From Ostreococcus lucimarinus (lineage: Eukaryota): DNA of 64,000 nt. The DNA is taken from assembly GCA_000092065.1 (NCBI GenBank), contig CP000582.1. The stretch is one strand, 5' to 3'. Under the pieces are notes generated by a model. It made no database searches, had not been told where the DNA came from, and saw only the letters and a program-made list of their open reading frames with translations. Shown here piece by piece: positions 30,589 through 57,677 of this stretch. How positions within the stretch are numbered: the stretch's first letter is position 1; every line of letters begins with the position of its first letter. A program made the position numbers and the translations under genes.

Positions 30589-30728
30589 GTGTGAGAAACC
30601 GATGCGAGAGTGTGAGAAACTCTCAGAGTGATGCTTCGATCCATGTCACTTTGAGAGCTCGAAGCTCGAGTTTTATCTCTCAGAGTTTTCAAGATATGCT
30701 TTGAATTACATATAACTATAAATGGTTT

Positions 30729-32155: not shown

Positions 32156-32253
32156 CGTGGTACCACGTGTATGTTTTGTGGAGCCTCGACGGCGCGGTGT
32201 GGCCGACCAGGTATGTTCTTTGTCTTTCACGCGGCCGAACTTGACGCATTCGA

Positions 32254-33914: not shown

Positions 33915-34151
33915 GATGTAGGTAAGAATCATGGGCAGCGTTCTCAAGCATCAGGCAAGTACGCACGTTAGTCACACGCGAATTCATCATGAACAACCAA
34001 AGGAAAATCATTTGTCGCTTTGGCTCCATAGTCATGTATCGGCTCTACACTCATATTTAGTTTTAATACGACAACGAATCTAAATACCAGTCAAGCCTAC
34101 TCTCGCTGAACGAGAAAATCATCTGTTTTCGCACAGCATACTCGTAATATA

Positions 34152-35066: not shown

Positions 35067-35428
35067 AAGAAAGCGGTTTGTGCTCGAGTTCGTGACATCG
35101 CGTAGTATTGTCAGGTGTCCCTAATTGAGAGCAAAACATGAGAAGATGCGGTTTTGCGTTGTTTTAACATCCGTACCGATTCGTCCACTACACCAGGAAC
35201 CATGTCGCGCCACGAGACTCCGTTTTTTTGAATTTGCCGACTTTCACTGCGACTGGCGAACGGTAGAGGGACCGCAGAGCGACGAAGGAGCGACGAAGGA
35301 GCGATCGTAGATCGTAGATTGCGTCCTCTGCAAGACCGCAAATGTCTTAAGGAATCGAGCTTGTGTAACGTGTTGCGATGTGAGTCGTCTGCGATTTTGA
35401 ACGGCGGGGTTCGTTTCGTTCCCAGCAC

Positions 35429-35518
35429 GGAAAAATTTATATATCGCCCCTTTAGAGAGTACCTACACACATGACGAGTCATGAACCGTGGATATATACG
35501 TATTTTACACCGTTTAGT
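35429..35518 (+). repeat. Inverted-repeat arm L (pairs with 36192..36279)
   Basis: ggaaaaatttatatatcgcccctttagagagtacctacacacatgacgagtcatgaaccgtggatatatacgtattttacaccgtttagt is the reverse complement of 36192..36279, apart from one 2-bp TA indel. Confidence 0.92.
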
Positions 35519-35519
35519 T

Positions 35520-36086
35520 CTAAAAGTTTGATTCTACAACATCTACGAGGTACTTACTAATGCTAATTTGCTCGCCTTTGCTTGCCTTGCGTTTGTGTTC
35601 ATCGACCATCTTCTCGTGCCAGCCCCTCTTCCTGCTCAACGCCGTATCACCCGCCGCGCCTCTCATAGGAATCGCAACCAGGTTCGACATACCGAGCACA
35701 CCATCGCCGTCCATTTTGCTATTCTTGGACATGTTTTGAGACATCTCTCTGTGTGTCTTCAAGTTGTGCATGAAACGTTGAAGTTTGTCGAGCGCGTCTG
35801 TGATGTGTGCGGCTTCATCAGGCTCGAACGTAAACTCCGGATCGAGTGCGAGTTGTATCATCTCGGTACACGATTGAACCCAGCGTGACTTTACACTCAC
35901 GTTGTCGAAAGCTGCTCCAAGGCTTCTCCGATGAGTTGGTAGAGAGGCTTCAACATTATCTGGAATCGCTGGAGTCACGTGTCTCCTGGAATCGCTGGAG
36001 TCACGTGTCTCCTGGAGCCCGGACGATACGTGAAGAGCATCACCGAACGGATCGTCGAAGGGATCATCGTCGCACTCGTCTTCCAT
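35520..36086 (-). CDS. Hypothetical 188-aa acidic protein enclosed by the inverted repeats (no recognisable family)
   Basis: The ORF fills most of the 673-bp interior between the IR arms. It contains a 26-bp tandem duplication (35961-36012) that switches reading frame yet leaves a long ORF. Confidence 0.35.
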   Translation of the reverse strand: MEDECDDDPFDDPFGDALHVSSGLQETRDSSDSRRHVTPAIPDNVEASLPTHRRSLGAAFDNVSVKSRWVQSCTEMIQLALDPEFTFEPDEAAHITDALDKLQRFMHNLKTHREMSQNMSKNSKMDGDGVLGMSNLVAIPMRGAAGDTALSRKRGWHEKMVDEHKRKASKGEQISISKYLVDVVESNF

Positions 36087-36191
36087 CCGACCATCGCCCG
36101 CACGCGCGACGACAACTGGCGCGACAGGCGTGGAAAAGACACGAGGCGAACGTGTTTTTCACCAAGGTAGGAATACTCTATTGTAGATGGC

Positions 36192-36279
36192 ACTAAACGG
36201 TGTAAAATACGTATATATCCACGGTTCATGACTCGTCATGTGTGTAGGTACTCTCTAAAGGGGCGATATAAATTTTTCC
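36192..36279 (-). repeat. Inverted-repeat arm R (pairs with 35429..35518)
   Basis: See arm L. The arm contains TATATA-like boxes and ATG codons, and lies between the divergent ORFs starting at 36086 (-) and 36446 (+). Confidence 0.92.
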
Positions 36280-36445
36280 CCCCGAACGCGTTTTTTGAAC
36301 GCGCCGGGGTTTAGCGAAACGCGATGGCGCAACCGTCGCGTTCGCGCGCCCGCCAGTGCGCGGTGCGGCCGCGGCCGCCCGCGGGTGCGCGTGAGTAGTT
36401 CGAGGTGATTCCGACGCGTCGCGTCCGCACGTCGTCGCGCGCCGA

Positions 36446-38239
36446 ATGCCTCGCACGTGCGTGTGCACGAACCCGAACTGCGACAAAGATGTCGAGCGAT
36501 TCGCGTTCCAACTCGGCAAGCACTGGAAAGACGACGTGCTCAAATCGATTCTATCGAGTCTCAGACCCGGAGCGGATGCTGATGACGTAGAAAAATACTT
36601 TTTGCGCGCGATGACGAAGCCCGATGGTGTTCGAGTGTCCTCGCAGCACTTCTTCTGGTACCATTTAGCATGGTCTCGAGGAGACCGCCCGAAGCTGGTC
36701 TTCAAAGATGGCGCGCACGTCCGGCCGACGTACATGCTCCATTCGAATCGGCCGACGTACGCGGGCGAACGAATCGTCGATCCGGCTCGTGTAGAATGTT
36801 TATCACCGCGCGAGACGCGTCTGCGCGTGAAGGCGCCGGCACGGGCGCCCCTTTCAGAGATTTCAAATTTGAATGAGGACGACGTGCATGCGACACAAGC
36901 TGGTGTCAGAGTTGGGATTAAACGGCGACGATCTGCTCCTGCGGCAATTTGCTCGCACAATCGCGCGCAAAACATGTCTTTGAACTCGTTTGAACGGGGA
37001 AGGCCGGGGGAAGAGACGTGCCGCGTGCAAGAAGGGACTATCCACAAGTTACGCTGTGATGAGTTGAAGTTGAGCGAGGCGCTGCGGGAAGAGCGTCAGC
37101 ACGCAGACGACGCGCGCGAGGACGTTCGTTTGCTCACGGAAGAACTTGAACGTATTCAAGAAGAAATGCACGACCAGGATCGAAAATCCTCGTTCGTAAC
37201 TATGCGATACTTGCGGGCGACGAGAGCTAGTGATAAGCAAATCAAAGCGCTTACTGGGTGGCCAACTTTGAAAACATTCGATGCTTTGTGGCGTTTCGTC
37301 AACGCGGGCGACCGCAATGCGACGCAAAACTTGTCGATTGTCAAACGAAAATGGAGGGGCGATTCGACGAGCGCGACGGGTTCGCATGGAACGGTCGTTC
37401 CGCGGAAAAAGAGCTTCAAATGGGAAGATGTATTTTTGGCGTGGTGGATGAGAGCGAAGATGGACTTGACCGCGGATCAACTTGCATACTTCGTCGGAAT
37501 ACACAAATCGACGCTTACACGTGCGCTACATCAAATGACATCATTTTTAACGGTTTTTATACGTGCTTACGGTGGCGACCCGATCGATCCCGAATGGATC
37601 CAGATGACAACAGGGGAGGATTGGAAAGAAGCATACGGGCAGAAACCTTATGAGATTATCGACGTGACTGAAGTGCCCATGGAGACTCCAGATGACCCAT
37701 ATATGCAGCGTTTGTTTTACAGTCATTATAAGAAGCGCTACGTGTGCAAATTTCTTGGCGCCTGTCACTCAAATTGTCTTGCCGCTTTCTGTTCAGTTGG
37801 GTTCCCTGGATCCATTTTTGACAATGAAATTTGCTTTGCTGGAAAGGATCATCCGATGCTTAATCATGCGGTACACCGAGCCAGCATCCGCCGGAGGACG
37901 TTCACAGACGAGAACGACGAAAATGTAGTCGTTCCCGAAACAATTGCAGCTGATCGTGGCTTTTGCGAAGGGTTGAATAGACAGTTTGAACGGGATGCGT
38001 TCAGGCTTGTGCACCCTGCGTTTTCAAGAGGCAAGAATGTGGCCTTCTCCAAGGAGGACATTCTCGACACCAGGGCGCAAGCATGTCGCCGAGTGCTAAT
38101 TGAAAATGCTTTCGGTCGCGTCAAGACGATTTGGAAGCGTATGCGCGGTCCAATAGCTATCTCCAAGCTGAAATCGGTGCATCAGGAGTGGCCAATAATA
38201 TTTTTCCTAGCGCTAGATTTACAAGCTTCGCTAAGGTAG
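36446..38239 (+). CDS. PIF/Harbinger-superfamily DDE transposase (DDE_Tnp_4 type), intronless
   Basis: HTH block: DLTADQLAYFVGIHKSTLTRALHQMTSFL. Catalytic blocks: EIIDVTEVPMETP (D), YSHYKKRYVCKF, GFPGSIFDNEI (D) and TIAADRGFCEG (D/E position). RRVLIENAFGRVKTIWKRM matches the R..VE..FG.LK..W..L signature. The N-terminus has a Cys/His pattern (CVCTNPNC ... SSQHF) reminiscent of a THAP-like finger; that last point is speculative. Confidence 0.8.
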   Translation: MPRTCVCTNPNCDKDVERFAFQLGKHWKDDVLKSILSSLRPGADADDVEKYFLRAMTKPDGVRVSSQHFFWYHLAWSRGDRPKLVFKDGAHVRPTYMLHSNRPTYAGERIVDPARVECLSPRETRLRVKAPARAPLSEISNLNEDDVHATQAGVRVGIKRRRSAPAAICSHNRAQNMSLNSFERGRPGEETCRVQEGTIHKLRCDELKLSEALREERQHADDAREDVRLLTEELERIQEEMHDQDRKSSFVTMRYLRATRASDKQIKALTGWPTLKTFDALWRFVNAGDRNATQNLSIVKRKWRGDSTSATGSHGTVVPRKKSFKWEDVFLAWWMRAKMDLTADQLAYFVGIHKSTLTRALHQMTSFLTVFIRAYGGDPIDPEWIQMTTGEDWKEAYGQKPYEIIDVTEVPMETPDDPYMQRLFYSHYKKRYVCKFLGACHSNCLAAFCSVGFPGSIFDNEICFAGKDHPMLNHAVHRASIRRRTFTDENDENVVVPETIAADRGFCEGLNRQFERDAFRLVHPAFSRGKNVAFSKEDILDTRAQACRRVLIENAFGRVKTIWKRMRGPIAISKLKSVHQEWPIIFFLALDLQASLR

Positions 38240-40336
38240 ATTCCGCGTCTCGCACGCGTCTGTAACCCTGTGTAAAGTACATTTGTGATTGTTCTCTTTT
38301 TCATATACGTCGAAATACTCCCTGAGAAGTGTTGATGGCTTGTTTCGCGACCACATCGCGCTTACATCAGGTGCAACTTCAGGGAGCTCCAAATCACCGT
38401 CACCGCGAGTGTCCACAGTGCATCGTCGCTTTGCGCGCCCAGCTTCGAATCGATTAAAGTCAATGTTGCTAAGAGGATTTTTGCGATTCATCGGATCCCC
38501 TTCGCCACTCGTGCCGAACCACTCACTTTCGAGCGACGTGCATGGATCAGCTGGTCGTTGCAACTTGGCAAAATACCAGAGCGCTGCGATGACATGGATG
38601 CACCCTCCGAAGTCTCCGCCCGCTCCCGCCTTGCACGCGCACGTCCCACGCTCGACACTGACGACATGGTCATGGACATGTTCATTCGTTTCTTCGTCGA
38701 TGCACCCATACTTGCATAACAAGCATACAGCGACGGCATAACGCTCTGCTTTGAGTGATGCCGGAATACCAACTCGGAACCACACGCGGAAGTGAGTTTG
38801 CATCCACGGATGCCCCACGTGCGCAAAACGAATCGGAAGGGGCGTCCGGGCGTGTATTCGTGCGTATCCTTGTCGATACGCTTTGGATCGAACCGGGTCG
38901 CCGTAAACGGACATCCCCGCGAGCCACGTCGTGATGATGTCCTCACCCATAAGCGGTGACGTCTCGCGGAAAAGCTCAACGTCAGTGCTCCACACTTCAG
39001 CATCCATTGGTGCGTCCAGATCGGGATCTAGCTCAGGGAATTGCGTCACCGGAAGATGAAAATGATGAACCAAATATGTATGAAGACTTTTCCCTTCTGG
39101 ATCCTGGACGTCGCCGTCGACGTCGATATCTAGCTCCTCGTACCGACGCTCAAGCTCCATCCTCTGTATGACCTCTGAGATGATGACATCTTTGTCCCGA
39201 ATATCCTGACATCCGCGGCGGCGATCGTTCCTACGCACGTTCAGCCAACGTATTAAATCCGATTTGGAGTTGTCCTCGACTCTCTTTTCCGGTAAAACGG
39301 CGCCTTTGATGAGATACTTGGGGATTCGTCTCGCCCGTGTTTCACCATGTCTAAAAAGGGCAGCCACTGCAACCAATTCAACGGGTTCGTGAGTATCCGC
39401 ATCGCGCAAACCTAAAGCGAATTCTTCGTTTTCTGAGTGATTTGCGTTGAATATGGTTGCGTCATTGAGCCAGCGTCTCTCTTTCGTCCGCATATCGTAC
39501 ACGATTGCTCGCTCAAAGCCCGCCAGGCTTTCCTCAAGTTTGAGAATTTGCGTGTCCTCATCACTCGCGTCGACGACGTCCTTCTTGACGAGGTATTTCA
39601 CAAAAGAGCGGATACTGAGAGTCTCTGCACTCTGTATGCACGCTACAATGGCTTTCAGAGCCGTTTGGGGTCCAAGTCCGGGAACTTTCCCCTCCCTGTA
39701 ATCACACCCGCTCGCCGCCGCCCACAAGCGCATGGCGGCGTCGCCGTGCATGCACATGAGCTCCGCAACTGTGTTCACCTCGTTCGTGTCTACCGGCATC
39801 CTCAGGTTGTTTCTGTTAAAAACGTTGCACTTTAACGTCGAAACGCTCCAAGACACCTTGTGGACGACCTTGGCGCACCCGAGCACCACTGCATCTGTGT
39901 CATCCGTCAACACGAAATCAACGAGACCACTCGACTCCATGTACTTCAACTGGTGATCTGATTCGTTTGGCGCCACGACGTACACGAATCCACGCTTCCG
40001 CACTTCATTCAGTATCCGAGGCAAATAACATCGTTCGAATTTTTCACCTATCGTACCTGCTCGCTTCGCGTGCGTCTCCTTCTTGTGTGCAGTCCTCGCA
40101 CCGTCGAAAACAAGGACTGGGAAGACACCTGCATTCACGAGCTTCGTAGCGCGCGAAATGACCGTTTCTACAGACGAATCCAGTTTATCCTGAACAGAAC
40201 CAGTTTTTCGCATCGCCCACCCCTGGTGTATCCAGATGTTTGCGTCTACCCCCGCTTTCGCGTTGGCGAACTCGCCGCCGATGGACGTGCGGACGACCGC
40301 ATCGTCGAACGCTTTCCACCCTGCGTCGACGCCCAT
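38231..40336 (-). CDS. EXO1/XPG/FEN1-family structure-specific 5' nuclease fused to a C-terminal SWIM zinc finger, intronless
   Basis: The probable start MGVDAGWKAF is at 40336. XPG-N: GVDANIWIHQ and PVLVFDGARTAHKKETHAKR. XPG-I: VVAPNESDHQLKYMESSGLVDFVLTDDTDAVVLGC. H3TH: GCDYREGKVPGLGPQTALKAI. SWIM: CACKAGAGGDFGGCIHVIAALWY. All acidic catalytic positions appear to be retained. Confidence 0.8.
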   Translation of the reverse strand: MGVDAGWKAFDDAVVRTSIGGEFANAKAGVDANIWIHQGWAMRKTGSVQDKLDSSVETVISRATKLVNAGVFPVLVFDGARTAHKKETHAKRAGTIGEKFERCYLPRILNEVRKRGFVYVVAPNESDHQLKYMESSGLVDFVLTDDTDAVVLGCAKVVHKVSWSVSTLKCNVFNRNNLRMPVDTNEVNTVAELMCMHGDAAMRLWAAASGCDYREGKVPGLGPQTALKAIVACIQSAETLSIRSFVKYLVKKDVVDASDEDTQILKLEESLAGFERAIVYDMRTKERRWLNDATIFNANHSENEEFALGLRDADTHEPVELVAVAALFRHGETRARRIPKYLIKGAVLPEKRVEDNSKSDLIRWLNVRRNDRRRGCQDIRDKDVIISEVIQRMELERRYEELDIDVDGDVQDPEGKSLHTYLVHHFHLPVTQFPELDPDLDAPMDAEVWSTDVELFRETSPLMGEDIITTWLAGMSVYGDPVRSKAYRQGYARIHARTPLPIRFAHVGHPWMQTHFRVWFRVGIPASLKAERYAVAVCLLCKYGCIDEETNEHVHDHVVSVERGTCACKAGAGGDFGGCIHVIAALWYFAKLQRPADPCTSLESEWFGTSGEGDPMNRKNPLSNIDFNRFEAGRAKRRCTVDTRGDGDLELPEVAPDVSAMWSRNKPSTLLREYFDVYEKENNHKCTLHRVTDACETRNLP

Positions 40337-40672
40337 ACGCACCAGAATTTGCAAACACGGCTACAACTCGATCAGAAATACATTTTGTCACCTGTTCATG
40401 TGCCTCCGCGATGCCCGACGCGCGTGCGCGCCACGACAGCAGCGTGAAAGTGACGGGGATGCGCGACGGGCCGAGCGAGTTCAAAAAAAGGACGAAAGGG
40501 CACCGGATTCGAGGTTTTCGTCGACAGTGGGTCATGACGAGTCACAAACGTTCGACTTAAATATGTAAAATGATAGGAAAACCTTAATGCAATGGGTCAT
40601 AATAGCTGAATATATATGGTTTCTCGTCGTAATGGACAAAAGTTGCTTTCATAAAAATAAGGATGTAGTTGT

Positions 40673-40789
40673 TACTGAGAGTGGGGTTCGAACCCACGCA
40701 GTCAATGACTACCAGAAATCTCACCAGTTTTTTCGGTGAAGCTTATTCGCACTTGAGTCTGGCCCCTTAGACCACTCGGGCATCCCAGC
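40673..40789 (-). tRNA. trnL-CAA: tRNA-Leu (anticodon CAA) with a ~34-nt intron after position 37
   Basis: Hand fold on the minus strand. Acceptor GCTGGGA/TCTCAGT (with G-U pairs). D arm CCC-GAGTGGTCTAA-GGG. Anticodon stem CCAGA/TCTGG with loop CT-CAA-G[intron]T. Long variable arm TAGTCATTGACTGC. T arm GTGGG-TTCGAAC-CCCAC. Discriminator A. A TTTTT run lies downstream (Pol III terminator). Confidence 0.85.
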
Positions 40790-40993
40790 ATGCGCAAAGT
40801 GTACAGCTCGCCGAACAAGTACTGTTGTCCCCCCCCATACTGCAGAAAAAAAGTATGGACTCTCATACATCCATGTGACTGACGCGCACGTTCTTACTCG
40901 TTCTTACTGAGTTCATCTTCGCAATGTATGGAGGCCGAAGAGTAATTATATTTTGTAGTTGAGCGCGGTTTTCTGTTCCATCAACGAATATCG

Positions 40994-42454: not shown

Positions 42455-42646
42455 CTGCGACCGGGTGCACGCGTGGATCGAAAAGCGAGCAACTGTTCAG
42501 CTGTTTTTTGCATCTTACGTTGAGGAAGGGAGGTTTCGCGGGTTCGCTTAGTTTCTTAGTCGTCTTTTCCGTCTTGTCGAAGTGCTCGACGTTAAGTAAT
42601 TTAATATATTTGACATCAGAAATAAATATTTATTTCTTGTGATATA

Positions 42647-51600: not shown

Positions 51601-54600
51601 TAGCTCTGCGGGACCTTCGACCAGTAACTTTGAGGGAGTCCTCTTTGTTCGCATTCATAACTCCACCAAGCCCTTACCCGTGCATCCATATTTCATTGGC
51701 AACTTTTTGCGTTGTGACGAACTCGAGTTCGGCTTGTTTGGCGCACCGCACAGCGAATGGACTACTCTGGACGCGCGGCAGATTCTCTTGATTGAGAGTG
51801 TACACACTATCCAGCTGAACAACAGTTCAGACGTTTCATTGCGCACTCTAGAGACGACGGCTGTTCTTGTTGGAGCACAAGCGGTAGATTCAACTGACGA
51901 GCATAGCGTTGAGATACAGTACAACGCCTACTCTGGCGTTGCTTCCGCCTTGAGCGTGCTGTGCGGTCGCGTATCGTACACGTTTGGTATGCGTGGCCCG
52001 TCCGTGTGTGTCGACACCGCGTGCTCCTCCTCGCTCGTGGCCGCGCATGTTGCGAGCTCTCACTTGCGCGATGGATCGTGCGAGGACGCCCTCGTCGCCG
52101 GCGTGAGCGTGAACGTCGGCATCGGCACCTTCCTCGTGGCCACCGCCGCGAGCATGCTATCGTTCGATGGTCGGTGCAAAACCTTGGATGCCAGCGCCGA
52201 CGGTTACGCCAAGGGCGAGTGCTGCGTGGTCCTGCGCGTGTCGGTGGACGGGGCGAGCGCTGGAGCGCCCAAAGCGCCCGATCTTCCAAACGCCGAGTCT
52301 CCCTCTCTCGCTCTTCTCGAACAGACCGGTGTGAACCAGGATGGACGGTCGAGCTCGCTCACCGCACCAAACGGGCCGTCGCAGCAGGCACTCGTGGCCG
52401 ATGCGCTTCTCCGCTCGGGGCTGCACGGCGACGCGCTCGGCAGGCTGGAGATGCACGGCACGGGTACTTCGCTGGGAGATCCGATAGAGGTCGGCGCCGC
52501 GCTTGAGGTTCTCGCGCCGCCGACGCGCGCGGACCGGGCGCCGTCCAGGGGCCCCGCGCTCACGCTTGAGGGCGTGAAGCCACGCGCTGGCCACTGCGAA
52601 CCAGGGGCTGGCGCGGTTGGGTTGCTGTTTGCGATGGCAAACTTGACGGAGCGAGCCGTCGCGTCCCTCGTCCACCTGCGCCAGCTCAACCCTCACGTCG
52701 AGGCCGCGACGCGCCGAAACGCACCGTCGCCGCATGCGCGCGCGCCGGTGCTCGCGCGACAAGGCATGCCGCGACCGGATGACGGCGCGTCTGAGGCTGG
52801 AGCAGCGGACGCTGCTCGAGCGCGCGTGCGGCGATCCGGCGTGAGCGGCTTCGCGTTCCAGGGCACAAACGCGCACGCAATCATGGCCCGGGGACCCGGA
52901 CAGGCGACTGCGCCCGGGTACACGGGAAGCACGCACACGGCGGCGCGTGCGTGGGAGCGTCAGCGCCACTGGTGCGCGCCAGAACGGCACTGCCTCATCG
53001 AGTCCGTGCGCGCTCTTCATCCTCGCGAGGGAGACTCGAGCGCGTTGGCGCGGTCGTGCGTGCGCCTGTGTCGGTCCGCGTCGCTCGCTGGCATGCTTGA
53101 TCACGCCATCGGGCTCCGGACGCTACTACCAGGCACAGCGCACGTCGAGATATGTCGAGCCATGGCGGGCGCGCTGGCAGACCAGCCGCTCGCCGACATC
53201 TCGCTGTCGCACGTATCTTTTGCAGCGCCCCTCGAGCTTCGAGCGCCGACGACCGACGTGCTGTGCGACGTCACGCCGCAAGGCGTGGCCCGCGTGGGCG
53301 TGCGCGTGTCGTCGTCCTCTGCCGCCGCGCCGTTCCTCGCGGGCGCGCTCAGCCGCAGAAGCGCCTCAAGAATTACTGCGTCTCCGGCGCACCTCTCGCG
53401 AGGACCGGCGATGCCCGCGCTGGACGTGCAGCCTTGTGTTCACGGCGCCATCAGACGGAGCGTGCGACGACTCGACGCGGATGATCGAGAGCCAAAGCCT
53501 GCTCGACATGGCGGCTCGGCGTTGTTTTCATCGTTCGTGAGGTGCGTCATGGCAGAGCGAGCCTCTGAAGATCGCTTCGACACGCCATCGTTGGGCAGGC
53601 AGCCGAGCGCGACAGCGCGCGTGGTCTCCTTGACGAAAGCCAGAGATTTCACTACACAAGCTCTCGACAGCATGCCGAAATGCAACGAGATTGAGCTGAG
53701 CGTCGTCAGCGCTGTGTCGAGTAAGGCATCAGGCGCGCACGATGCTGTGCGTGTGAACAACATGCGACATGCGTGCGGCGAAGTGTGTGATCCACAAAGC
53801 TCAAAATCGCACGAGTTCGTCGCTCGGCATCTTGTGCAGTTTGGGTACTTCATCGAGCGCAGCTTGTTTGACGGGGAGCAGTTCTCCGTAACGGCGCACG
53901 AGGCGCGGTTGATGGACCCGCAGCAGCGCGTGCTCCTGGAGAACGCGCTCGCCGCGACGAGCGCGACGCCGCACAGCGCGCCGAAGCCAGCCACAGCCGT
54001 GTCCGTCGGCGCTTGGACGTCTCAGTACGCAGACATGTGCCGCGTGTACGAGCCAACGCCGGGGCCGTACTCTGGCGTTGCTTCCGCCTTGAGCGTGCTG
54101 TGCGGTCGCGTATCGTACACGTTTGGTATGCGTGGCCCGTCCGTGTGTGTCGACACCGCGTGCTCCTCCTCGCTCGTGGCCGCGCATGTTGCGAGCTCTC
54201 ACTTGCGCGATGGATCGTGCGAGGACGCCCTCGTCGCCGGCGTGAGCGTGAACGTCGGCATCGGCACCTTCCTCGTGGCCACCGCCGCGAGCATGCTATC
54301 GTTCGATGGTCGGTGCAAAACCTTGGATGCCAGCGCCGACGGTTACGCCAAGGGCGAGTGCTGCGTGGTCCTGCGCGTGTCGGTGGACGGGGCGAGCGCT
54401 GGAGCGCCCAAAGCGCCCGATCTTCCAAACGCCGAGTCTCCCTCTCTCGCTCTTCTCGAACAGACCGGTGTGAACCAGGATGGACGGTCGAGCTCGCTCA
54501 CCGCACCAAACGGGCCGTCGCAGCAGGCACTCGTGGCCGATGCGCTTCTCCGCTCGGGGCTGCACGGCGACGCGCTCGGCAGGCTGGAGATGCACGGCAC

Positions 54601-56623
54601 AGGTACTTCGCTGGGAGATCCGATAGAGGTCGGCGCCGCGCTTGAGGTTCTCGCGCCGCCGACGCGCGCGGACCGGGCGCCGTCCAGGCCCCCCGCGCTC
54701 ACGCTTGAGGGCGTGAAGCCACGCGCTGGCCACTGCGAACCAGGGGCTGGCGCGGTTGGGTTGCTGTTTGCGATGGCAAACTTGACGGAGCGAGCCGTCG
54801 CGTCCCTCGTCCACCTGCGCCAGCTCAACCCTCACGTCGAGGCCGCGACGCGCCGAAACGCACCGTCGCCGCATGCGCGCGCGCCGGTGCTCGCGCGACA
54901 AGGCATGCCGCGACCGGATGACGGCGCGTCTGAGGCTGGAGCAGCGGACGCTGCTCGAGCGCGCGTGCGGCGATCCGGCGTGAGCGGCTTCGCGTTCCAG
55001 GGCACAAACGCGCACGCAATCATGGCCCGGGGACCCGGACAGGCGACTGCGCCCGGGTACACGGGAAGCACGCACACGGCGGCGCGTGCGTGGGAGCGTC
55101 AGCGCCACTGGTGCGCGCCAGAACGGCACTGCCTCATCGAGTCCGTGCGCGCTCTTCATCCTCGCGAGGGAGACTCGAGCGCGTTGGCGCGGTCGTGCGT
55201 GCGCCTGTGTCGGTCCGCGTCGCTCGCTGGCATGCTTGATCACGCCATCGGGCTCCGGACGCTACTACCAGGCACAGCGCACGTCGAGATATGTCGAGCC
55301 ATGGCGGGCGCGCTGGCAGACCAGCCGCTCGCCGACATCTCGCTGTCGCACGTATCTTTTGCAGCGCCCCTCGAGCTTCGAGCGCCGACGACCGACGTGC
55401 TGTGCGACGTCACGCCGCAAGGCGTGGCCCGCGTGGGCGTGCGCGTGTCGTCGTCCTCTGCCGCCGCGCCGTTCCTCGCGGGCGCGCTCAGCCGCAGAAG
55501 CGCCTCAAGAATTACTGCGTCTCCGGCGCACCTCTCGCGAGGACCGGCGATGCCCGCGCTGGACGTGCAGCCTTGTGTTCACGGCGCGAGCTGGCTGCGC
55601 TCGTCGCAGCGACGAGGCCCGGGCGCGGAGCACCGCGTGTACGGCGACATACGCGCGCGTCAGATGTCCACGCTGTCGGCTGCGGCGTATCACTCGCCGC
55701 CCGCAGTGCTCGATGCCGCGCTGCACGCGCTCAGCGCGTGCGCGCCGCCGCCGGGTAGCGATGCGACAGAAGAGAGCCCGCACGTCCCGGCCACGATCGG
55801 CGGCGTCCGCACGCGAGGCGGGCACTCGGACATGTACCGCGCCCGGTTCGCGCTCGCGACGGCTCCGCCTGAGCGCGGGGAGCGGAACGCGTCCACGCGC
55901 AGATCTCGTCACCACCTGTGGGACTGGTCGAGTCTTTCGGCGGCGCATCGAGGGTGCGTGGTGCACGCGCTGGAGTCTCGACGACTCGGTGGCCTCACGA
56001 CGAATTCATTTTATCATAGCTTTACGTCTACGCAGGCATATAAGTTGGCTCATATTCCACGGCCAGACATCCTATCGCAGTCTTTCACTTCAATGAAGAC
56101 TATAAATGCTGTCGACAAAGCTAGCAGCACATTTACAGAACGCAGTAGTGATGCGATGGAAATTGTTAACGCCGTGCAACGCGAGATTTTGGAAATTTTA
56201 TCAACATTAACGACCAGTCCTGTAAGTTTAGATGATACACTTGCGAGCCACGGATTGGACTCACTGGGCATTGCATATTTTTTTATTCAAGTTGGCAAAC
56301 GGTTCAATGTTGAAGTGACTGTTGACAGTCTTGGCACGAACACCACAGTCAGTAGTATAGTGCATCAGATATCACAGATGCTTAGTGCAAGGGTGATTTT
56401 CCTACACACCAAGGACCTGGTGCGCGAGCGAAAAGCCGACAGCTCCTCAAGAAGAGGAAGGAGCACTGCGATCACATCGATGGTGTCTGCATACCGTCGA
56501 CACTTGCAGTCAACTGAATTCGAGCCCAAAGCCTGTTTTGCAAGAGGCGTACTTGCTTGCGCAATATTTACTATATTTATCATTGCGTACGGATATCACG
56601 CACACAGATTCGACATGTTTTAG
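42647..56623 (+). CDS. Giant modular type I polyketide synthase, apparently AT-less: (N-term unknown)-KS-DH-KR-ACP-KS-DH-KR-ACP-KS-DH(truncated)-KS-DH-ACP-TM helix; 4658 aa, single ORF
   Basis: 4x KS (DTACSSSL Cys, HGTGT, G-H). 4x DH-like (LLDHRVADMHLMP / MLDHA[VI]GLRTLLP, plus NPCIQDASLQ / AVLDAALHA). 2x KR (VFVTGGLGALGQ ... GQCNYSAANAALDA). 3x ACP (EEGLDSLAAVEL x2, SHGLDSLGIAYF). I could find no GHSxG/AFHS acyltransferase signature, and the KS-to-DH linkers are only ~28 aa. The first in-frame Met is 42647; a later Met start is possible. Confidence 0.9.
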   Translation: MTYDIVLQRFTPTSQGPTTPYPCAIKANSKWKLVRLKRLALERFRCPMLTRHKPESVQNGTPRNESRMSNLDTRAMSNPYFQVGRWDCTDELEGCQFSAPHTSVSVPNFEEIQTLHYTCVYEVAITCTQRHDMHNDEFAHVLSSVIELANRVDLTRLRQHHSIDNFATHVLTFRFILDLLRQTYQEYIKGSIENNSFEHVEFTFNNCMDGTHGMATCFKPNKKHSHLCYILDISQAERSCNGRTDDTKCVHDKITMNDRVLSAAKIPDNAVNKQFSASILNDVYGFDSSLFHISQSETLCMDPQQRLLLLAAADLYLSNTRVCQHDDSFCVHVGVSWNDFEEIRRKYSADFFSTYDSTGTSISVASGRIAYYFDFKGCAVTIDTACSSSLVALHQSMYAAGSLRESSALVCGINLILTTTMTHRFQLAGMMSSEHRCMTFDARADGYVRSEACNIVLLHFNGFTKTHRNVLRHDVHMSCVVNQDGTSTGLTAPNGTAQRNLMNELLSDVYNPSKHVGAKIHAHGTGTPLGDPIEVFAINSALSFSSLCRLYVSEKSMRGHTEPASGLCSTILAFVSGAQCKLHGQPHLQQLNNHILTSVDESIFQRSLHSSFPLTSMASVTTVSSFAFQGTNAMASLTYIDKCSIRVIRNTSGLRSLVKLETESPVRLPYTFSCLSIVNGKMIQLTSMIHDKTLKRLLDHRVADMHLMPATGHLELERELTKCALVRNEPYLLTKIAFMLPLKLDESNQLITEMNTHGRLRVGCGSGISNYWCSTARLQIPVGRAWCTDRTFYLTSKLVSRRFKGATATIAGTTPILDSQNVVNPCIQDASLQCSAYVLNTSAFASDTTYMDCVSLLKLPTTIQDVIVVNQTGKILVRSTHVDMLQKTQHVTESNNSVTSNSSSNNKTQTWIHRLLCKVSTVRMKAGLRTRTCLELARLLYHARQQRVLISNMQNLREVGSLHAPELMPIMREMGRKSMQDINSASASLCAVALLQACGARARVSGAHVRANDIVHEDASAAPAVCGSCVRATVQSSAQERSEPLVLSVASAPHTAPARALRSIAAGASIAGALCVERLLPAFGRRTPAASRDGAATTTASPAPKVSSVFVTGGLGALGQTSAAWYAHRGVRHAYLTGRRGRGESLLLRWSSRGGTDVSALHVLRVDACATDEASYGGARAHARVRAHGVLHAGGVLRDSLTARQSASAHRYVWSSKVVSAHALLRQCVGVERGARHIALFSSVAALLGSPGQCNYSAANAALDARAAHEWCRGYAVQSVQWGAWDGAGMALTNASVLRNARTTGIGVLDPQAGLGAVHVALQGASVTGRWRAIQGVLAVVPFQWSVLARAQRSRALIAEYRAESARSSAPVAVHPGAEEDAARDVSDESVRQIVASAVTRALGRDVSVDASLMEEGLDSLAAVELGGALQKETGVNMPATLAFDYPTITAISGYLKGAMLARSRARQSSGAASSAARTRAASGAVAHSRDSMPGIASNAREILGLAPVVMAIRRSVRRLDADDREPKPARHGGSALFSSFVRCVMAERASEDRFDTPSLGRQPSATARVVSLTKARDFTTQALDSMPKCNEIELSVVSAVSSKASGAHDAVRVNNMRHACGEVCDPQSSKSHEFVARRLVQFGYFIERSLFDGEQFSVTAHEARLMDPQQRVLLENALAATSATPHSAPKPATAVSVGAWTSQYADMCRVYEPTPGPYSGVASALSVLCGRVSYTFGMRGPSVCVDTACSSSLVAAHVASSHLRDGSCEDALVAGVSVNVGIGTFLVATAASMLSFDGRCKTLDASADGYAKGECCVVLRVSVDGASAGAPKAPDLPNAESPSLALLEQTGVNQDGRSSSLTAPNGPSQQALVADALLRSGLHGDALGRLEMHGTGTSLGDPIEVGAALEVLAPPTRADRAPSRGPALTLEGVKPRAGHCEPGAGAVGLLFAMANLTERAVASLVHLRQLNPHVEAATRRNAPSPHARAPVLARQGMPRPDDGASEAGAADAARARVRRSGVSGFAFQGTNAHAIMARGPGQATAPGYTGSTHTAARAWERQRHWCAPERHCLIESVRALHPREGDSSALARSCVRLCRSASLAGMLDHAVGLRTLLPGTAHVEICRAMAGALADQPLADISLSHVSFAAPLELRAPTTDVLCDVTPQGVARVGVRVSSSSAAAPFLAGALSRRSASRITASPAHLSRGPAMPALDVQPCVHGASWLRSSQRRGPGAEHRVYGDIRARQMSTLSAAAYHSPPAVLDAALHALSACAPPPGSDATEESPHVPATIGGVRTRGGHSDIYRARFALATAPPERGERNASTRRSRHHLWDWSSLSAAHRGCVVHALESRRLGGAAVVRSRAQQRSRAPPPRRAAAPRVLYGVGQQRACGAADGQGARRRSTLNSQCFVDDASHRRELMETHASPSIAQGSTRSSTRASLCAVALLQACGARARVSGAHVRANDIVHEDASAAPAVCGSCVRATVQSSAQERSEPLVLSVASAPHTAPARALRSIAAGASIAGALCVERLLPTFGRRTPAASRDGAATTTASPAPKVSSVFVTGGLGALGQTSAAWYAHRGVRHAYLTGRRGRGESLLLRWSSRGGTDVSALHVLRVDACATDEASYGGARAHARVRAHGVLHAGGVLRDSLTARQSASAHRYVWSSKVVSAHALLRQCVGVERGARHIALFSSVAALLGSPGQCNYSAANAALDARAAHEWCRGYAVQSVQWGAWDGAGMALTNASVLRNARTTGIGVLDPQAGLGAVHVALQGASVTGRWRAIQGVLAVVPFQWSVLARAQRSRALIAEYRAESARSSAPVAVHPGAEEDAARDVSDESVRQIVASAVTRALGRDVSVDASLMEEGLDSLAAVELGGALQKETGVNMPATLAFDYPTITAISGYLKGAMLARSRARQSSGAASSAARTRAASGAVAHSRRTTITQLPRLRLSYVPHEVSRRTTLGISGQYSHELRHFSSAGPSTSNFEGVLFVRIHNSTKPLPVHPYFIGNFLRCDELEFGLFGAPHSEWTTLDARQILLIESVHTIQLNNSSDVSLRTLETTAVLVGAQAVDSTDEHSVEIQYNAYSGVASALSVLCGRVSYTFGMRGPSVCVDTACSSSLVAAHVASSHLRDGSCEDALVAGVSVNVGIGTFLVATAASMLSFDGRCKTLDASADGYAKGECCVVLRVSVDGASAGAPKAPDLPNAESPSLALLEQTGVNQDGRSSSLTAPNGPSQQALVADALLRSGLHGDALGRLEMHGTGTSLGDPIEVGAALEVLAPPTRADRAPSRGPALTLEGVKPRAGHCEPGAGAVGLLFAMANLTERAVASLVHLRQLNPHVEAATRRNAPSPHARAPVLARQGMPRPDDGASEAGAADAARARVRRSGVSGFAFQGTNAHAIMARGPGQATAPGYTGSTHTAARAWERQRHWCAPERHCLIESVRALHPREGDSSALARSCVRLCRSASLAGMLDHAIGLRTLLPGTAHVEICRAMAGALADQPLADISLSHVSFAAPLELRAPTTDVLCDVTPQGVARVGVRVSSSSAAAPFLAGALSRRSASRITASPAHLSRGPAMPALDVQPCVHGAIRRSVRRLDADDREPKPARHGGSALFSSFVRCVMAERASEDRFDTPSLGRQPSATARVVSLTKARDFTTQALDSMPKCNEIELSVVSAVSSKASGAHDAVRVNNMRHACGEVCDPQSSKSHEFVARHLVQFGYFIERSLFDGEQFSVTAHEARLMDPQQRVLLENALAATSATPHSAPKPATAVSVGAWTSQYADMCRVYEPTPGPYSGVASALSVLCGRVSYTFGMRGPSVCVDTACSSSLVAAHVASSHLRDGSCEDALVAGVSVNVGIGTFLVATAASMLSFDGRCKTLDASADGYAKGECCVVLRVSVDGASAGAPKAPDLPNAESPSLALLEQTGVNQDGRSSSLTAPNGPSQQALVADALLRSGLHGDALGRLEMHGTGTSLGDPIEVGAALEVLAPPTRADRAPSRPPALTLEGVKPRAGHCEPGAGAVGLLFAMANLTERAVASLVHLRQLNPHVEAATRRNAPSPHARAPVLARQGMPRPDDGASEAGAADAARARVRRSGVSGFAFQGTNAHAIMARGPGQATAPGYTGSTHTAARAWERQRHWCAPERHCLIESVRALHPREGDSSALARSCVRLCRSASLAGMLDHAIGLRTLLPGTAHVEICRAMAGALADQPLADISLSHVSFAAPLELRAPTTDVLCDVTPQGVARVGVRVSSSSAAAPFLAGALSRRSASRITASPAHLSRGPAMPALDVQPCVHGASWLRSSQRRGPGAEHRVYGDIRARQMSTLSAAAYHSPPAVLDAALHALSACAPPPGSDATEESPHVPATIGGVRTRGGHSDMYRARFALATAPPERGERNASTRRSRHHLWDWSSLSAAHRGCVVHALESRRLGGLTTNSFYHSFTSTQAYKLAHIPRPDILSQSFTSMKTINAVDKASSTFTERSSDAMEIVNAVQREILEILSTLTTSPVSLDDTLASHGLDSLGIAYFFIQVGKRFNVEVTVDSLGTNTTVSSIVHQISQMLSARVIFLHTKDLVRERKADSSSRRGRSTAITSMVSAYRRHLQSTEFEPKACFARGVLACAIFTIFIIAYGYHAHRFDMF
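43480..44560 (+). other. PKS KS1 domain (AT-moderate composition)
   Basis: FDSSLFHISQSETLCMDPQQRLLL; TIDTACSSSLVALHQS (Cys codon near 43801); HAHGTGTPLGDPIE; SMRGHTEPASG; SSFAFQGTNAMASL. Confidence 0.85.
44600..45290 (+). other. PKS DH1 domain (AT-moderate composition)
   Basis: LLDHRVADMHLMPATGHLE (the HxxxGxxxxP variant with D) and NPCIQDASLQ (the DxxxQ motif). Confidence 0.65.
45960..46560 (+). other. PKS KR1 catalytic subdomain (GC-rich, repeat A copy 1)
   Basis: VFVTGGLGALGQTSAAWYAHRG; FSSVAALLGSPGQCNYSAANAALDA. Confidence 0.8.
46817..47013 (+). other. PKS ACP1
   Basis: VRQIVASAVTRALG..SLMEEGLDSLAAVELGGALQ..LAFDYPTITAISGYL. Confidence 0.85.
47560..48757 (+). other. PKS KS2 (GC-rich, repeat B copy 1)
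   Basis: FDGEQFSVTAHEARLMDPQQRVLLE; VCVDTACSSSLVAAHVA; EMHGTGTSLGDPIE; PRAGHCEPGAG; SGFAFQGTNAHAIM. Confidence 0.85.
48840..49726 (+). other. PKS DH2 (complete)
   Basis: MLDHAVGLRTLLPGTAHVE and YHSPPAVLDAALHALS. Confidence 0.65.
49976..51486 (+). repeat. PKS intragenic repeat A, copy 2
   Basis: See copy 1. Confidence 0.92.
50331..51384 (+). other. PKS KR2 + ACP2 (repeat A copy 2, offset +4371 from KR1/ACP1)
   Basis: Translation is identical to KR1/ACP1 except for LLPAFG->LLPTFG upstream. Confidence 0.85.
51684..52885 (+). other. PKS KS3, chimeric: divergent AT-moderate N-terminal part (to 51928) fused in-frame to GC-rich repeat B from 51929
   Basis: HPYFIGNFLRCDELEFGLFGAPHSEWTTLDARQILLIESV aligns with FGYFIERSLFDGEQFSVTAHEARLMDPQQRVLLENA of KS2/KS4. 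From Y|SGVASALS onward the sequence is identical to KS2/KS4. Confidence 0.8.
51929..53448 (+). repeat. PKS intragenic repeat B, partial copy 2 (1520 bp, from mid-KS to mid-DH)
   Basis: See copy 1. Both ends fall inside domains. Confidence 0.92.
52968..53448 (+). other. PKS DH3, truncated after the first half at the repeat junction (lacks the LDAALH half)
   Basis: MLDHAIGLRTLLP is present. At ..QPCVHGA|IRRSVRRLD the sequence jumps directly into the inter-module linker of repeat B copy 3. Confidence 0.7.
53447..55993 (+). repeat. PKS intragenic repeat B, copy 3
   Basis: See copy 1. It abuts partial copy 2 with a 2-bp microhomology (gc). Confidence 0.92.
53827..55993 (+). other. PKS KS4 + DH4 (repeat B copy 3, offset +6267 from KS2/DH2)
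   Basis: The motifs are the same as in KS2/DH2. Substitutions seen: ARRLVQ->ARHLVQ, SRGPAL->SRPPAL, DHAVG->DHAIG, HSDIY->HSDMY. Confidence 0.85.
56154..56385 (+). other. PKS terminal ACP3 (AT-moderate composition)
   Basis: AMEIVNAVQREILEIL..LDDTLASHGLDSLGIAYFFIQVGKRF..IVHQISQML. Confidence 0.8.
56531..56600 (+). other. C-terminal hydrophobic helix of the PKS (putative membrane anchor)
   Basis: ACFARGVLACAIFTIFIIAYGY is followed by HAHRFDMF and the stop. No thioesterase or reductase release domain is present. Confidence 0.5.
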
Positions 56624-56726
56624 TTACCAACGTCACGGCGGTAGGCTCATTGCCCTTGTAATTCAACTCCGTTCTCAAAAAGTTGTCTGTTAAGTACTTT
56701 GAGCACTGTTCAGCTCTCACCGCTGA

Positions 56727-56795
56727 CTCCCGACAGGAGTTAGCTAAAACTCCTGACAGGAGTTAGCTAAAACTCCTGACAGGAGTTAGCGAAAG
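56727..56795 (+). repeat. 3 x 23-bp tandem repeat, each unit = 13-bp palindrome CTCCTGaCAGGAG + 8-bp palindrome TTAGCTAA + AA
   Basis: Direct reading: ctcccgacaggagttagctaaaa / ctcctgacaggagttagctaaaa / ctcctgacaggagttagcgaaag. The array ends 3 nt before the ATG at 56799. Confidence 0.9.
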
Positions 56796-56798
56796 GTG

Positions 56799-57677
56799 AT
56801 GCCGAGGCGCACATCATTAGCCAACGGCAGCTCGCTGTACGACGGGTTGCGATTTAAGTCGAGCGGGTTCAAGCGTTCGGGCAGGAAAGTGAACTTTTAC
56901 ACGTGTAGTACGATCGACGACTCGGACAGAAACGCGTCCTCGACGGGGAGATGCACGTTCGAGGCGGAGATCCGGCACAGAGCCGCGACGGACGAGTACT
57001 TCATCACCAAGTACGTCGGCCATTCGTTCGGTTGCACCGCGCTCTCGCCCCACATCGACGGGGAAACGCGAGCCGAGCTCGTCGATGACGTGCAAATGCA
57101 AGCCATATCCCTGCAACGAGGTCGCGTCGCTGTACAATCGTGTATCGATTACGTGTTCCGGCGCTACTCGTACGTCGTCGACGAAGCGCCGGCTGCGTCG
57201 TTACTTCAGTGCGTGCGGCGACGAAGTTCGGTGGCCACTCGCAGAGAGGCTCTTAAGCGCTTCGCTCAGACGAAAGTGCGATCGAAATTACAGGGCGAAC
57301 TCATGACCTGCATCGCGCACTCGCGCCAAGTCATAACCTCGTTGAGCCTGACCGAACGCCCGACGTCACGCGACATTCGAAAGTATTATCATGTGTTCGG
57401 ATTGCTGCACACGCACTGCAGTCGTCTTCCGGAGTTCGACTCGCTCGCAACCGTATGGATGGCCGCAGATACGACTAGCAGCGCCGCGCTCATTCATGCG
57501 CTCGAGCTCGGCATCAAAAAATTCGACAACGCACTGCGCACCGTTCGCCCCGCGACTGCCTCACAAACTGAAGCCTTGCACAACGCTCACGGCCATCTTC
57601 CTCCTTACGATCTCAGTGAAGCCGAGGCGTTGACGGCTCTTCGTAGTATAGCGCGTTCTGCCCAAACACGTTCGTAG
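56799..57677 (+). CDS. GC-rich intronless orphan protein with N-terminal WRKY/FLYWCH/FAR1-like zinc-finger signature (possibly transposon-derived)
   Basis: YDGLRFKSSGFKRSGRKVNFYTCS...GRCTFEAEIRH...YFITKYVGHSFGC fits the beta-strand C..C...H.(H/C) pattern of WRKY-GCM1 superfamily DNA-binding domains. The rest of the protein has no recognisable family. An imperfect hairpin lies at 57690-57714, just after the stop. Confidence 0.4.
   Translation: MPRRTSLANGSSLYDGLRFKSSGFKRSGRKVNFYTCSTIDDSDRNASSTGRCTFEAEIRHRAATDEYFITKYVGHSFGCTALSPHIDGETRAELVDDVQMQAISLQRGRVAVQSCIDYVFRRYSYVVDEAPAASLLQCVRRRSSVATRREALKRFAQTKVRSKLQGELMTCIAHSRQVITSLSLTERPTSRDIRKYYHVFGLLHTHCSRLPEFDSLATVWMAADTTSSAALIHALELGIKKFDNALRTVRPATASQTEALHNAHGHLPPYDLSEAEALTALRSIARSAQTRS

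Follow-up and report, generated by a model that had tools for sequence, protein, structure and literature searches.

Three GC-rich islands in a low-GC region of the Ostreococcus lucimarinus genome: a polymorphic transposon, an orphan gene and a homogenised polyketide synthase module array with a proposed GC-biased conversion history

A stretch of 64,000 nucleotides of Ostreococcus lucimarinus DNA (contig CP000582.1 of assembly GCA_000092065.1, presumably chromosome 2; referred to here as the window) raises the question of why three GC-rich, intron-free islands lie in a neighbourhood of intron-bearing genes with a moderate AT content, and whether they share a source or a mechanism, as a first-pass annotation made from the letters alone had proposed. 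The islands correspond to a DNA transposon (island 1), the middle of a giant type I polyketide synthase (PKS) gene (island 2) and an orphan gene (island 3). Taken as a whole, the evidence makes it probable that the window lies in the published low-GC outlier region BOC1, that island 1 is a polymorphic transposon insertion, that island 2 is an array of PKS modules homogenised by GC-biased gene conversion, and that island 3 is an orphan gene that looks recently moved or introgressed.

The O. lucimarinus genome has a G+C content of 60% (PMC3491373, Table 1), and the Mamiellales carry on a 'big outlier chromosome' the low-GC region BOC1 with its dense small introns (PMC3491373). This region is considered non-recombining and mating-type-like, and its low GC content has been ascribed to absent recombination and hence to absent GC-biased gene conversion (gBGC) (PMC3491373; PMC5498103); genome-wide gBGC has been inferred for O. 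tauri (PMC5498103). In the window, the GC content outside the islands was 0.454 (500-nt windows, sd 0.026, maximum 0.524), as opposed to 60% in the genome, and the GC content at third codon positions (GC3) of flanking genes was 0.38-0.50. The products of three open reading frames (ORFs) are exact matches to O. lucimarinus CCE9901 proteins, namely an STN7-like kinase (XP_001416427), XP_001416426 and XP_001416425, on what is taken to be the outlier chromosome. That many flanking genes carry introns of about 50 nt was confirmed for glutathione reductase, the one flanking gene checked: tblastn of the annotated 519-aa protein revealed a 50-nt intron at 32863-32912, and further 5' the alignment has a gap of approximately 51 nt, which probably marks another intron. 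Since BOC1 is characterised in the literature by just this combination of low GC content and short introns in housekeeping genes, the anomaly is the neighbourhood and not the islands, and the window is part of BOC1. The initial picture of odd islands in a moderate background is therefore inverted: GC-rich intronless genes are common in this 60% G+C genome, in which BOC1 is the low-GC, intron-rich exception (PMC3491373). A frequent occurrence of such genes among ordinary host genes had been named in the first-pass annotation itself as speaking against its proposal.

The elevated GC content of the islands was nevertheless real, although unequal. It reached 0.526 in island 1 (35429-40604; mean z 2.8, 60% of windows above the background maximum), 0.685 in island 2 (45605-55993; mean z 8.9, all windows above this maximum) and 0.580 in island 3 (56796-57677; mean z 5.2). 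The use of GC-ending codons followed suit, with a GC3 of 0.56-0.58, 0.78 and 0.68, respectively, and the spurious long ORFs reported for the islands were found as well: apart from the real PKS gene, the stretch at 45.2-56.1 kb accounts for 30 of the 58 ORFs that reach 150 aa or more. They result from the low six-frame stop density in island 2, which is 0.012 per codon in comparison to 0.042 in the background.

A common source would be provided by a single GC-rich mobilome behind all three islands, whose transposons delivered the PKS modules. Relative synonymous codon usage (RSCU) correlated among the islands (r 0.63-0.81), with values of 0.66 between transposon genes and PKS modules and of 0.81 between PKS modules and island 3, but not with BOC1 genes (r -0.26 to 0.10). 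Furthermore, the transposon is located 2 kb upstream of the PKS gene, and MULE elements have been described beside O. tauri PKS loci (bioRxiv 10.1101/2025.04.21.649811). However, the islands correlate equally well with ordinary O. lucimarinus genes of standard chromosomes (r 0.74-0.83; PKS modules 0.83), which indicates that the shared codon usage is the host's normal GC-ending usage and not the mark of a shared source. This standard sample consists of the genes on the GC-rich flank (GC 0.57-0.64) of L009, L-numbers denoting metagenome contigs; one of them is an exact match to O. lucimarinus XP_001421857, located on a contig other than that of the window, and is taken to represent a standard chromosome. 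Moreover, the absolute GC3 differs between the islands (0.57, 0.78 and 0.68), many haplotypes possess the PKS junction without the transposon, the module edges are limits of inter-module homology within an ORF, and the 90-nt terminal repeat of the transposon was not found in the PKS gene or the rest of the window, the module edges not having been scanned for other terminal repeats. We therefore regard a common mobilome as very unlikely. Tetranucleotide deviation profiles normalised for base composition did not clearly separate the islands from the background (r 0.55-0.84), and the compositional signal is essentially GC content plus codon third positions. Island 2 goes beyond standard genes in its GC content at second codon positions (GC2 0.60 versus 0.40-0.52) and in its share of Gly, Ala, Arg and Pro (42% versus 31%). 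Each island represents a kind of sequence of its own and has a separate reason for lying nearer to the standard 60%-GC composition. What remains of the proposed shared source is thus confined to single islands: a common origin finds no support in the RSCU, which is equally host-like, while island 1 is mobile, island 3 probably so, and GC-biased conversion is the best explanation for island 2.

Island 2 is not a discrete island but the middle of one continuous PKS ORF whose ends, as well as a short inlay, have a low GC content (Table 1). The domains are arranged as KS-DH, followed by KR-ACP-KS-DH-KR-ACP-KS-DH(truncated)-KS-DH and a terminal ACP (KS, ketosynthase; DH, dehydratase; KR, ketoreductase; ACP, acyl carrier protein), and the translation contains the motifs DTACSSS, HGTGT, GHxEP, LDSL, YSAAN and HxxxGxxxxP. 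The Cys-His-His residues of the KS domains, the serine of the ACP motif DSL and the modular order of KR and DH are in line with a type I modular PKS. No Acyl_transf_1 match was obtained with Pfam across the 4658 aa, so that the protein does not qualify as a PKS with an acyltransferase in cis, and judged by its domain content it would need this activity in trans. A hydrophobic stretch follows the last ACP at the C-terminus, where no thioesterase was detected.

The GC-rich part of the gene is built from near-identical repeats, namely two copies of a KR-ACP unit (A1, A2) and copies of a linker-KS-DH unit (B1, B3), whose core at 47797-49320 is present a third time in B'2. Self-BLAST showed identities of 99.6-99.8% between copies, whereas the KS of the low-GC 5' part shares just 31% identity with the GC-rich KS domains. 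Maximum-likelihood change points of GC content were located at 45615, 51480, 51991 and 56003, and the homology boundaries at 45605, 51486, 51926 and 55993; the distance was 10 nt or less at three boundaries and 65 nt at the fourth. The sharp GC edges are hence the limits of inter-module homology. Two features testify to exchange between the copies: B'2 is a mosaic that matches B1 at sites 52462-52551 and then B3 at sites 53017-53125 (three sites each), and at 51925/51926 a diverged low-GC KS N-terminus is joined to a homogenised core, resulting in a chimeric KS. The inlay acts as an unconverted control within the array. To the eye, it is similar to the linker and KS N-terminus of P0063, a PKS fragment of O. 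tauri presumably from chromosome 2, which by inspection is rich in residues encoded by AT-rich codons.

Table 1. Position, strand and supporting evidence of the features in the window.
Feature	Position	Strand	Evidence and properties
BOC1 low-GC background, housekeeping genes	1..35428		GC 0.42-0.50 per kb, GC3 0.38-0.50, short introns
Island 1, composite DNA transposon insertion, ~5.2 kb	35429..40604		Empty-site alleles, second locus, GC 0.526
Sub-element of 851 bp, terminal inverted repeats of 86-90 nt	35429..36279		Repeats 35433-35518 / 36192-36277, 97% complementary
188-aa ORF of the 851-bp sub-element	35520-36086	-	= XP_001416425; no Pfam family
Transposase ORF, 597 aa, PIF/Harbinger type	36446..38239	+	DDE_Tnp_4 PF13359, E 4.5e-18; GC3 0.56
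XPG/FEN-family nuclease ORF; annotated 701-aa form from 40336	38231..40354	-	XPG_N and XPG_I; = XP_001416426 'Exodeoxyribonuclease I'
Type I PKS, one uninterrupted ORF, 4658 codons	42647..56623	+	Translation without stop; Pfam KS x4, KR x2, PP-binding x3, PKS_DH_N x4
Low-GC 5' part: N-terminus, KS1 (~43712-44566), DH1	42647..45604	+	GC 0.453, GC3 0.443; KS1 GC3 0.418
Repeat A1 (KR-ACP)	45605..47115	+	GC 0.71; 99.8% identical to A2, 3 sites differ
Repeat B1 (linker-KS-DH)	47180..49726	+	GC 0.68; 99.6% identical to B3; KS GC3 0.77
Linker 'u' (DH-to-KR), single-copy, GC-rich	49727..49975	+	GC 0.73; part of the 4371-bp tandem unit A-B-u
Repeat A2 (KR-ACP)	49976..51486	+	Self-BLAST
Low-GC inlay, single-copy linker and diverged KS N-terminus, 439 nt	51487..51925	+	GC 0.49, GC3 0.43
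Repeat B'2, KS core and truncated DH	51926..53448	+	Third copy of core 47797-49320
Repeat B3 (linker-KS-DH)	53447..55993	+	Self-BLAST
Low-GC 3' tail: terminal ACP, hydrophobic end	55994..56623	+	GC 0.444, GC3 0.448; PP-binding
Three tandem 23-nt units, each with palindrome ACTCCTGACAGGAGT	56726..56794		Directly upstream of the island 3 ORF
Island 3, orphan ORF, 292 aa from ATG 56799	56796..57677	+	GC 0.58, GC3 0.68

Near-identical repeats of 1.5-2.5 kb are hard to assemble, and the arrangement of modules differs among the metagenome contigs, with one module unit in L029 and two in L030 and L018; these counts may represent real alleles or collapsed or mis-resolved repeats. Hence, the whole GC-rich block might be an assembly artefact, either a contaminant chimera or a mis-resolved repeat. 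We give this explanation almost no credence, given that the reading frame and the PKS domain logic continue through all junctions and that the pattern recurs in other taxa. Moreover, independent assemblies from unrelated samples contain the outer junctions as well, L002-L005, L029 and L030 the left one at 45605, and L019, L029 and L030 the right one at 55993, which excludes a chimeric assembly. The linker 'u' is 100% identical in L018, L019 and L030, and neither the inlay nor the B'2/B3 junction was present in any of the metagenome contigs compared. The PKS gene in L018, which belongs to the same 360-kb contig Ga0494219_00130 as L001 and L008, lacks the counterparts of window positions 44837-45604 and 55443-56237, both transition zones between low and high GC content. 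The resulting junctions 44836/45605 (L018 1497-1499) and 55442/56238 (L018 9440) break the frame and leave two overlapping frames; either a degenerate allele or an error in the assembly could account for this.

The ancestry of the modules was traced by a homology search with the GC-rich unit 45605-49975. Its closest relatives are the O. tauri fragment P0063 (60% identity) and the orthologue P0062 of a sister species in L006 (54%), while all others, bacteria included, do not exceed 44%. For the PKS modules, O. tauri and two metagenomic Ostreococcus-like orthologues showed 54-67% identity, and orthologues are present in O. tauri and at least two further Ostreococcus-like taxa. In L006, the kinase is likewise located upstream of the PKS gene, which has one internal module; the GC content rises from 0.42-0.48 to 0.54-0.605 at an approximately homologous position (400-nt resolution), dips in the linker and drops in the tail. 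The O. tauri fragment exhibits by eye the same alternation of GC-type and AT-type amino acids in the same order, including a counterpart of the inlay; an exact-product look-up of its DNA gave no match, and the comparison with O. tauri is one of amino-acid composition only. At 59-60% amino-acid identity between the O. lucimarinus modules and the L006 orthologue, synonymous sites are saturated (pS 0.69-0.81), and despite this saturation GC3 is 0.78-0.80 in the modules versus 0.41-0.42 in the first module and the tail. The high GC content must therefore be actively maintained, because a one-off import would have decayed. A third Ostreococcus-like species (L031/L032) has at least two modules that are 99.95% identical, with a GC content of 0.60-0.65 in comparison to 0.41-0.48 in the flanks. 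Across these three taxa only, GC content follows copy number, with 0.70 at two to three copies (O. lucimarinus), 0.62 at two or more (L031) and approximately 0.58 at one (L006). The linker of unit B has a GC3 of 0.73 within the repeat of O. lucimarinus and of 0.45 as a single copy in L006.

These data bear on two further explanations that invoke a foreign or distant donor. According to the first, the modules were recently transferred from a GC-rich donor, either a bacterium (for instance an actinomycete or myxobacterium) or some other organism, and spliced in frame into the host PKS; the actinomycete-like appearance of the modules (GC 0.70, GC3 0.78, 42% Gly, Ala, Arg and Pro), their sharp compositional edges and the many Streptomyces PKSs among the matches would fit. 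However, the best bacterial matches do not exceed approximately 40% identity over about 27% of the query, which lies well below the Ostreococcus-type orthologues, L006 changes its GC content at the homologous position (coordinate mapping, 400-nt resolution), and the O. tauri fragment appears by eye to alternate alike. Saturated synonymous divergence would place the import before speciation, so that its composition should have decayed, and the codon usage is that of the host's standard genes. A recent transfer, as a form of the horizontal acquisition considered in the first-pass annotation, is thus extremely improbable; the island also lacks the features of horizontally acquired DNA, as its codon usage is host-like (r 0.74-0.83) and foreign relatives of the modules are all at or below 44% identity. 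In the search with 45605-49975, identities above 44% were confined to Ostreococcus orthologues, on which grounds a bacterial or otherwise foreign module origin was rejected. The proposed link between module gain and transposons found no support either: the modules lie in frame in an ancient gene, and their edges are homology limits and not transposon ends.

According to the second, the modules are recent, not yet decayed copies of a paralogous PKS on a standard 60%-GC chromosome, transferred by ectopic recombination or conversion. This is suggested by their standard-like codon usage and by the fact that standard chromosomes of O. tauri harbour large genes for type I PKSs (PMC5498103). The mosaic is common to species with saturated synonymous sites, though, and island 2 exceeds the standard sample in GC2 and in Gly, Ala, Arg and Pro. 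In addition, the database, which includes the O. lucimarinus proteome, held no paralogue above 44% identity, and relatives at this level are too diverged to serve as conversion donors. No donor paralogue on a standard chromosome was found in the search with 45605-49975, and we consider this origin quite unlikely.

The generality of the link between repeats and GC content was assessed in a KS-alignment scan of metagenome contigs covering 73 loci. Of 9 loci whose PKS coding sequence contains near-identical internal repeats, 8 had repeats richer in GC than the unique PKS sequence; the ninth belongs to a GC-rich genome. L052 and L043 hint that the link is weak or missing where the background is itself GC-rich. 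At the level of KS domains, each repeated KS had a higher GC3 than each unique KS in all 7 loci with both kinds (difference 0.07 to 0.35; sign test by hand, p = 0.008). The relation extends to a far more AT-rich taxon (L027), in which repeats have a GC content of 0.46, unique PKS sequence of 0.36-0.42 and flanks of 0.36. Four contigs (L040, L046, L065 and L076) contain orthologous five-KS PKS genes of different picoeukaryote taxa. Their KS2 and KS5 pair across taxa at 46-69% identity, while the two middle KS domains (at approximately 10001 and 13750 in L040, L046 and L065, and at 6299 and 10001 in L076) are 100% identical in amino acids within a taxon (99.2-100% in nucleotides over 1.3-1.7 kb) and 48-59% identical between taxa. 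In all four genes the homogenised pair is the GC3-rich pair, and the flanking KS domains behave as normal orthologues. These genes are a textbook example of concerted evolution at a conserved position. The same relation was found between species for the modules themselves, with 99.6-99.8% identity between copies in O. lucimarinus and 99.95% in L031 as opposed to 59-60% amino-acid identity to the L006 orthologue. The PKS array thus exemplifies concerted evolution cleanly, and the footprint left in its GC content, within a low-recombination region, is large.

The alignments show that intragenic recombination has homogenised the modules, that high GC content and homogenised tracts coincide, and that the GC-rich state persists over saturating divergence. 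By analogy with the palindromes of the Y chromosome, the homogenising conversion would be GC-biased, as is also suggested by the GC3 of repeated and unique KS domains in the seven loci and by the contrasting composition of linker B. In the explanation that we favour, a giant type I PKS gene of old, vertical descent contains island 2 as its internal KR-ACP-KS-DH array, and intragenic unequal recombination together with gene conversion keeps the modules near-identical. GC-biased conversion would drive synonymous and even non-synonymous sites to a high GC content, while modules and linkers without a conversion partner would decay to the AT-rich level of the region. Tandem modules can convert one another without a homologous chromosome, so that this process is able to operate where crossing-over is absent. 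Gly, Ala, Arg and Pro make up 42% of the modules but 21% of the unconverted parts of the same protein. The far-reaching claim that module conversion in giant algal PKS genes acts as a strong local GC-biased drive without meiotic crossing-over, overriding AT-ward decay and re-coding the enzyme, strikes us as evenly balanced between true and false.

Selection offers another way to keep the GC content high, be it on mRNA structure or stability, on the translation of long transcripts, on chromatin or on amino-acid composition, with no conversion bias and with the repeats being incidental. The single-copy modules in L006 and L026 are GC-elevated too, and BOC1 PKS regions have distinct profiles of micrococcal nuclease (MNase) coverage and CpG methylation (bioRxiv 10.1101/2025.04.21.649811). 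On the other hand, GC3 stays at the background level in two other parts of this very transcript, its first KS-DH module and its terminal ACP, and in 7 of 7 loci the elevation of GC3 within a gene is restricted to the homogenised KS pair. The same linker is GC-rich inside and AT-rich outside a repeat, and the change points follow the limits of homology and not those of domains. Selection as the sole cause therefore appears unlikely to us.

Several observations weigh against GC-biased conversion as we propose it. Only 13 sites differ between the copies, 11 of them between a weak (A or T) and a strong (G or C) base, which is too few to polarise for a bias from weak to strong. The single-copy modules in L006 and L026 still lie approximately 0.10 above their flanks in GC content, indicating that repeats in cis are not strictly required at present and that past copies, copies on other haplotypes or another force are needed; likewise, the single-copy 249-nt linker 'u' in the window is GC-rich (0.73). 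Contigs assembled from short metagenome reads can collapse the copy number of modules, and the tests provided by the four orthologous loci are not fully independent of one another. The codon or mRNA properties of the modules may also be under selection.

Island 1 is explained by mobile DNA. In L003-L005, an empty site joins 35429 to 40599 via a 61-nt filler, so that the kinase adjoins the cyclin gene, and the core of the element (36280-40604) is present at a second locus (L009-L012, L016, L017) with 99.7-99.9% identity and an identical nuclease protein; the neighbours of this locus in L009-L012 are MCM3 and PsbP-like genes. Empty and occupied alleles as well as near-identical copies in a second context thus attest to the mobility of the element. 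Its transposase matches DDE_Tnp_4 with 65.8 bits (cutoff 24.8). Of the 'nuclease-SWIM' protein named in the first-pass annotation, the nuclease part stands, with XPG domains according to Pfam, while the SWIM part is a C-terminal CxC...CxH motif seen by eye and has no Pfam match. The nuclease belongs to the transposon either as cargo or as its second gene, and GenBank lists it as a host 'Exodeoxyribonuclease I'. The 851-bp unit at one end has the opposite orientation to the core in L011 (11063-11916), L016 and L017, and in L010 (2882-3113) a derivative of approximately 230 bp contains nothing but the two repeat arms. There are two interpretations of the unit: a segment that can invert, or an independent foldback element nested at the end of the transposon. 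Its 188-aa ORF contains a perfect 26-nt tandem duplication (two copies of CTGGAATCGCTGGAGTCACGTGTCTC at 35960-36011), other members of the cluster having 180-181 aa, and showed no similarity to the 180-aa gene in L028.

We interpret island 1 as a recent, still polymorphic, composite PIF/Harbinger-like insertion, the intermediate GC content of which may reflect a transposon family living genome-wide. An argument to the contrary is that no target-site duplication (3-bp TWA) was found at island 1 and that the occupied allele lacks the 61 nt of the empty allele. Terminal inverted repeats of the whole element were not found, and the far end (approximately 40533-40598) has only a 17-nt motif in common with the repeats of the sub-unit. 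The element resembles known PIF/Harbinger transposons in its DDE_Tnp_4 transposase, its two genes, the AT-rich flank at the right end and its presence/absence polymorphism. It differs from them in that its second gene encodes an XPG/FEN-family nuclease instead of a Myb/SANT protein, that no 3-bp target-site duplication is visible, and that the long inverted repeats bound the 851-bp sub-unit and not the whole element. At L002 10312-11501, about 1.2 kb within the transposon take the place of approximately 260 bp at window positions 36958-37219, an internal structural variant in an assembly with many small indels. The transposon copy in L009 (1-19158) is flanked by BOC1-like genes (SMP and MCM3, GC 0.46-0.47) on one side and by the standard-type genes (0.57-0.64) on the other, so that this contig represents either a compartment boundary or a misjoin across a repeat.

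Island 3 encodes a protein labelled earlier as a zinc-finger orphan. No Pfam family was matched even at E<=10, so that the zinc-finger label is without support, whereas the orphan status is underlined by homologues in only three clusters among 5.8 billion sequences and by the lack of distant ones. The gene lies between the PKS gene and UTP20 in all O. lucimarinus-type contigs showing both neighbours, and no homologue was present at the orthologous site of L006. A segment of 710 bp (window 57074-57780) is 96.2% identical to L028 10345-11054 in a different gene context, although L028 derives from another Ostreococcus-like species, in which the glutathione reductase gene is 66% identical to that of the window. 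Judging from this similarity, island 3 looks recently moved or introgressed and is probably mobile DNA; it may be described as a lineage-restricted orphan gene with standard-like codon usage. The palindromic 23-nt units upstream of it could be a regulatory or protein-binding array.

The composition of the window is mostly explained by published genome architecture. Apparently undescribed is that a single reading frame changes from 45% to 70% GC and back at the limits of near-identical modules, and that the link between homogenised modules and a higher GC3 recurs in at least seven PKS loci of several picoeukaryote taxa. If module conversion is indeed a strong GC-biased drive, one ORF with a converted and an unconverted state is an internal quantitative control for the idea that absent recombination causes the low GC content of BOC1, and local GC content is a read-out of PKS modules being homogenised across picoeukaryotes. 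The locus would be a natural experiment in a candidate mating-type region on what sets GC content, with recombination-linked bias opposing AT-biased mutation. Conversion may shift the amino-acid make-up of biosynthetic enzymes non-adaptively, and local GC content could mark PKS modules in concerted evolution, which is relevant for the prediction of polyketide structures from sequence.

The closest known system is BOC1 of the Mamiellales itself, with the same organism and chromosome, low GC content, short introns, housekeeping genes, a variable giant PKS locus and transposons (PMC3491373; PMC5498103; bioRxiv 10.1101/2025.04.21.649811). Giant type I PKS genes of BOC1 have been described as structurally hypervariable, and their regions as having raised MNase coverage and CpG methylation (bioRxiv 10.1101/2025.04.21.649811). 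While this literature treats the variation in PKS size and modules and the altered chromatin, the present analysis adds a GC mosaic within one ORF that matches homogenised repeats; the terms 'GC-rich' and 'high-GC' are not used for PKS modules in bioRxiv 10.1101/2025.04.21.649811. Among titles and abstracts in a literature that was incompletely covered, we found no Ostreococcus paper linking PKS to gene conversion, and we make no claim of priority.

Mechanistically, the array is comparable to the palindromes of the human Y chromosome, where near-identical copies exist without crossing-over and intrachromosomal conversion preserves their identity and favours G and C against AT-biased mutation (PMC5591018). 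In contrast to palindrome arms or separate genes, the repeats described here are tandem modules in a single coding sequence. The effect in the PKS gene is very large (GC3 higher by 0.35, GC2 raised as well), and its bias is deduced from composition rather than from counted conversions. Similar GC-biased conversion is known from the avian W ampliconic gene HINTW and from mammalian histone genes. In modular PKSs of Streptomyces, KS domains are homogenised by gene conversion between modules, and elements termed GRINS in bacterial modular PKSs were reportedly described by Nivina and colleagues in 2021. As in these bacterial systems, adjacent modules in O. lucimarinus are homogenised, with boundaries in or near the KS that give rise to chimeric KS domains, as seen at 51925/51926. 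Unlike there, a strong GC or AT skew is not in evidence, the host is a eukaryote, and the locally AT-rich background means that homogenisation leaves a visible compositional footprint.

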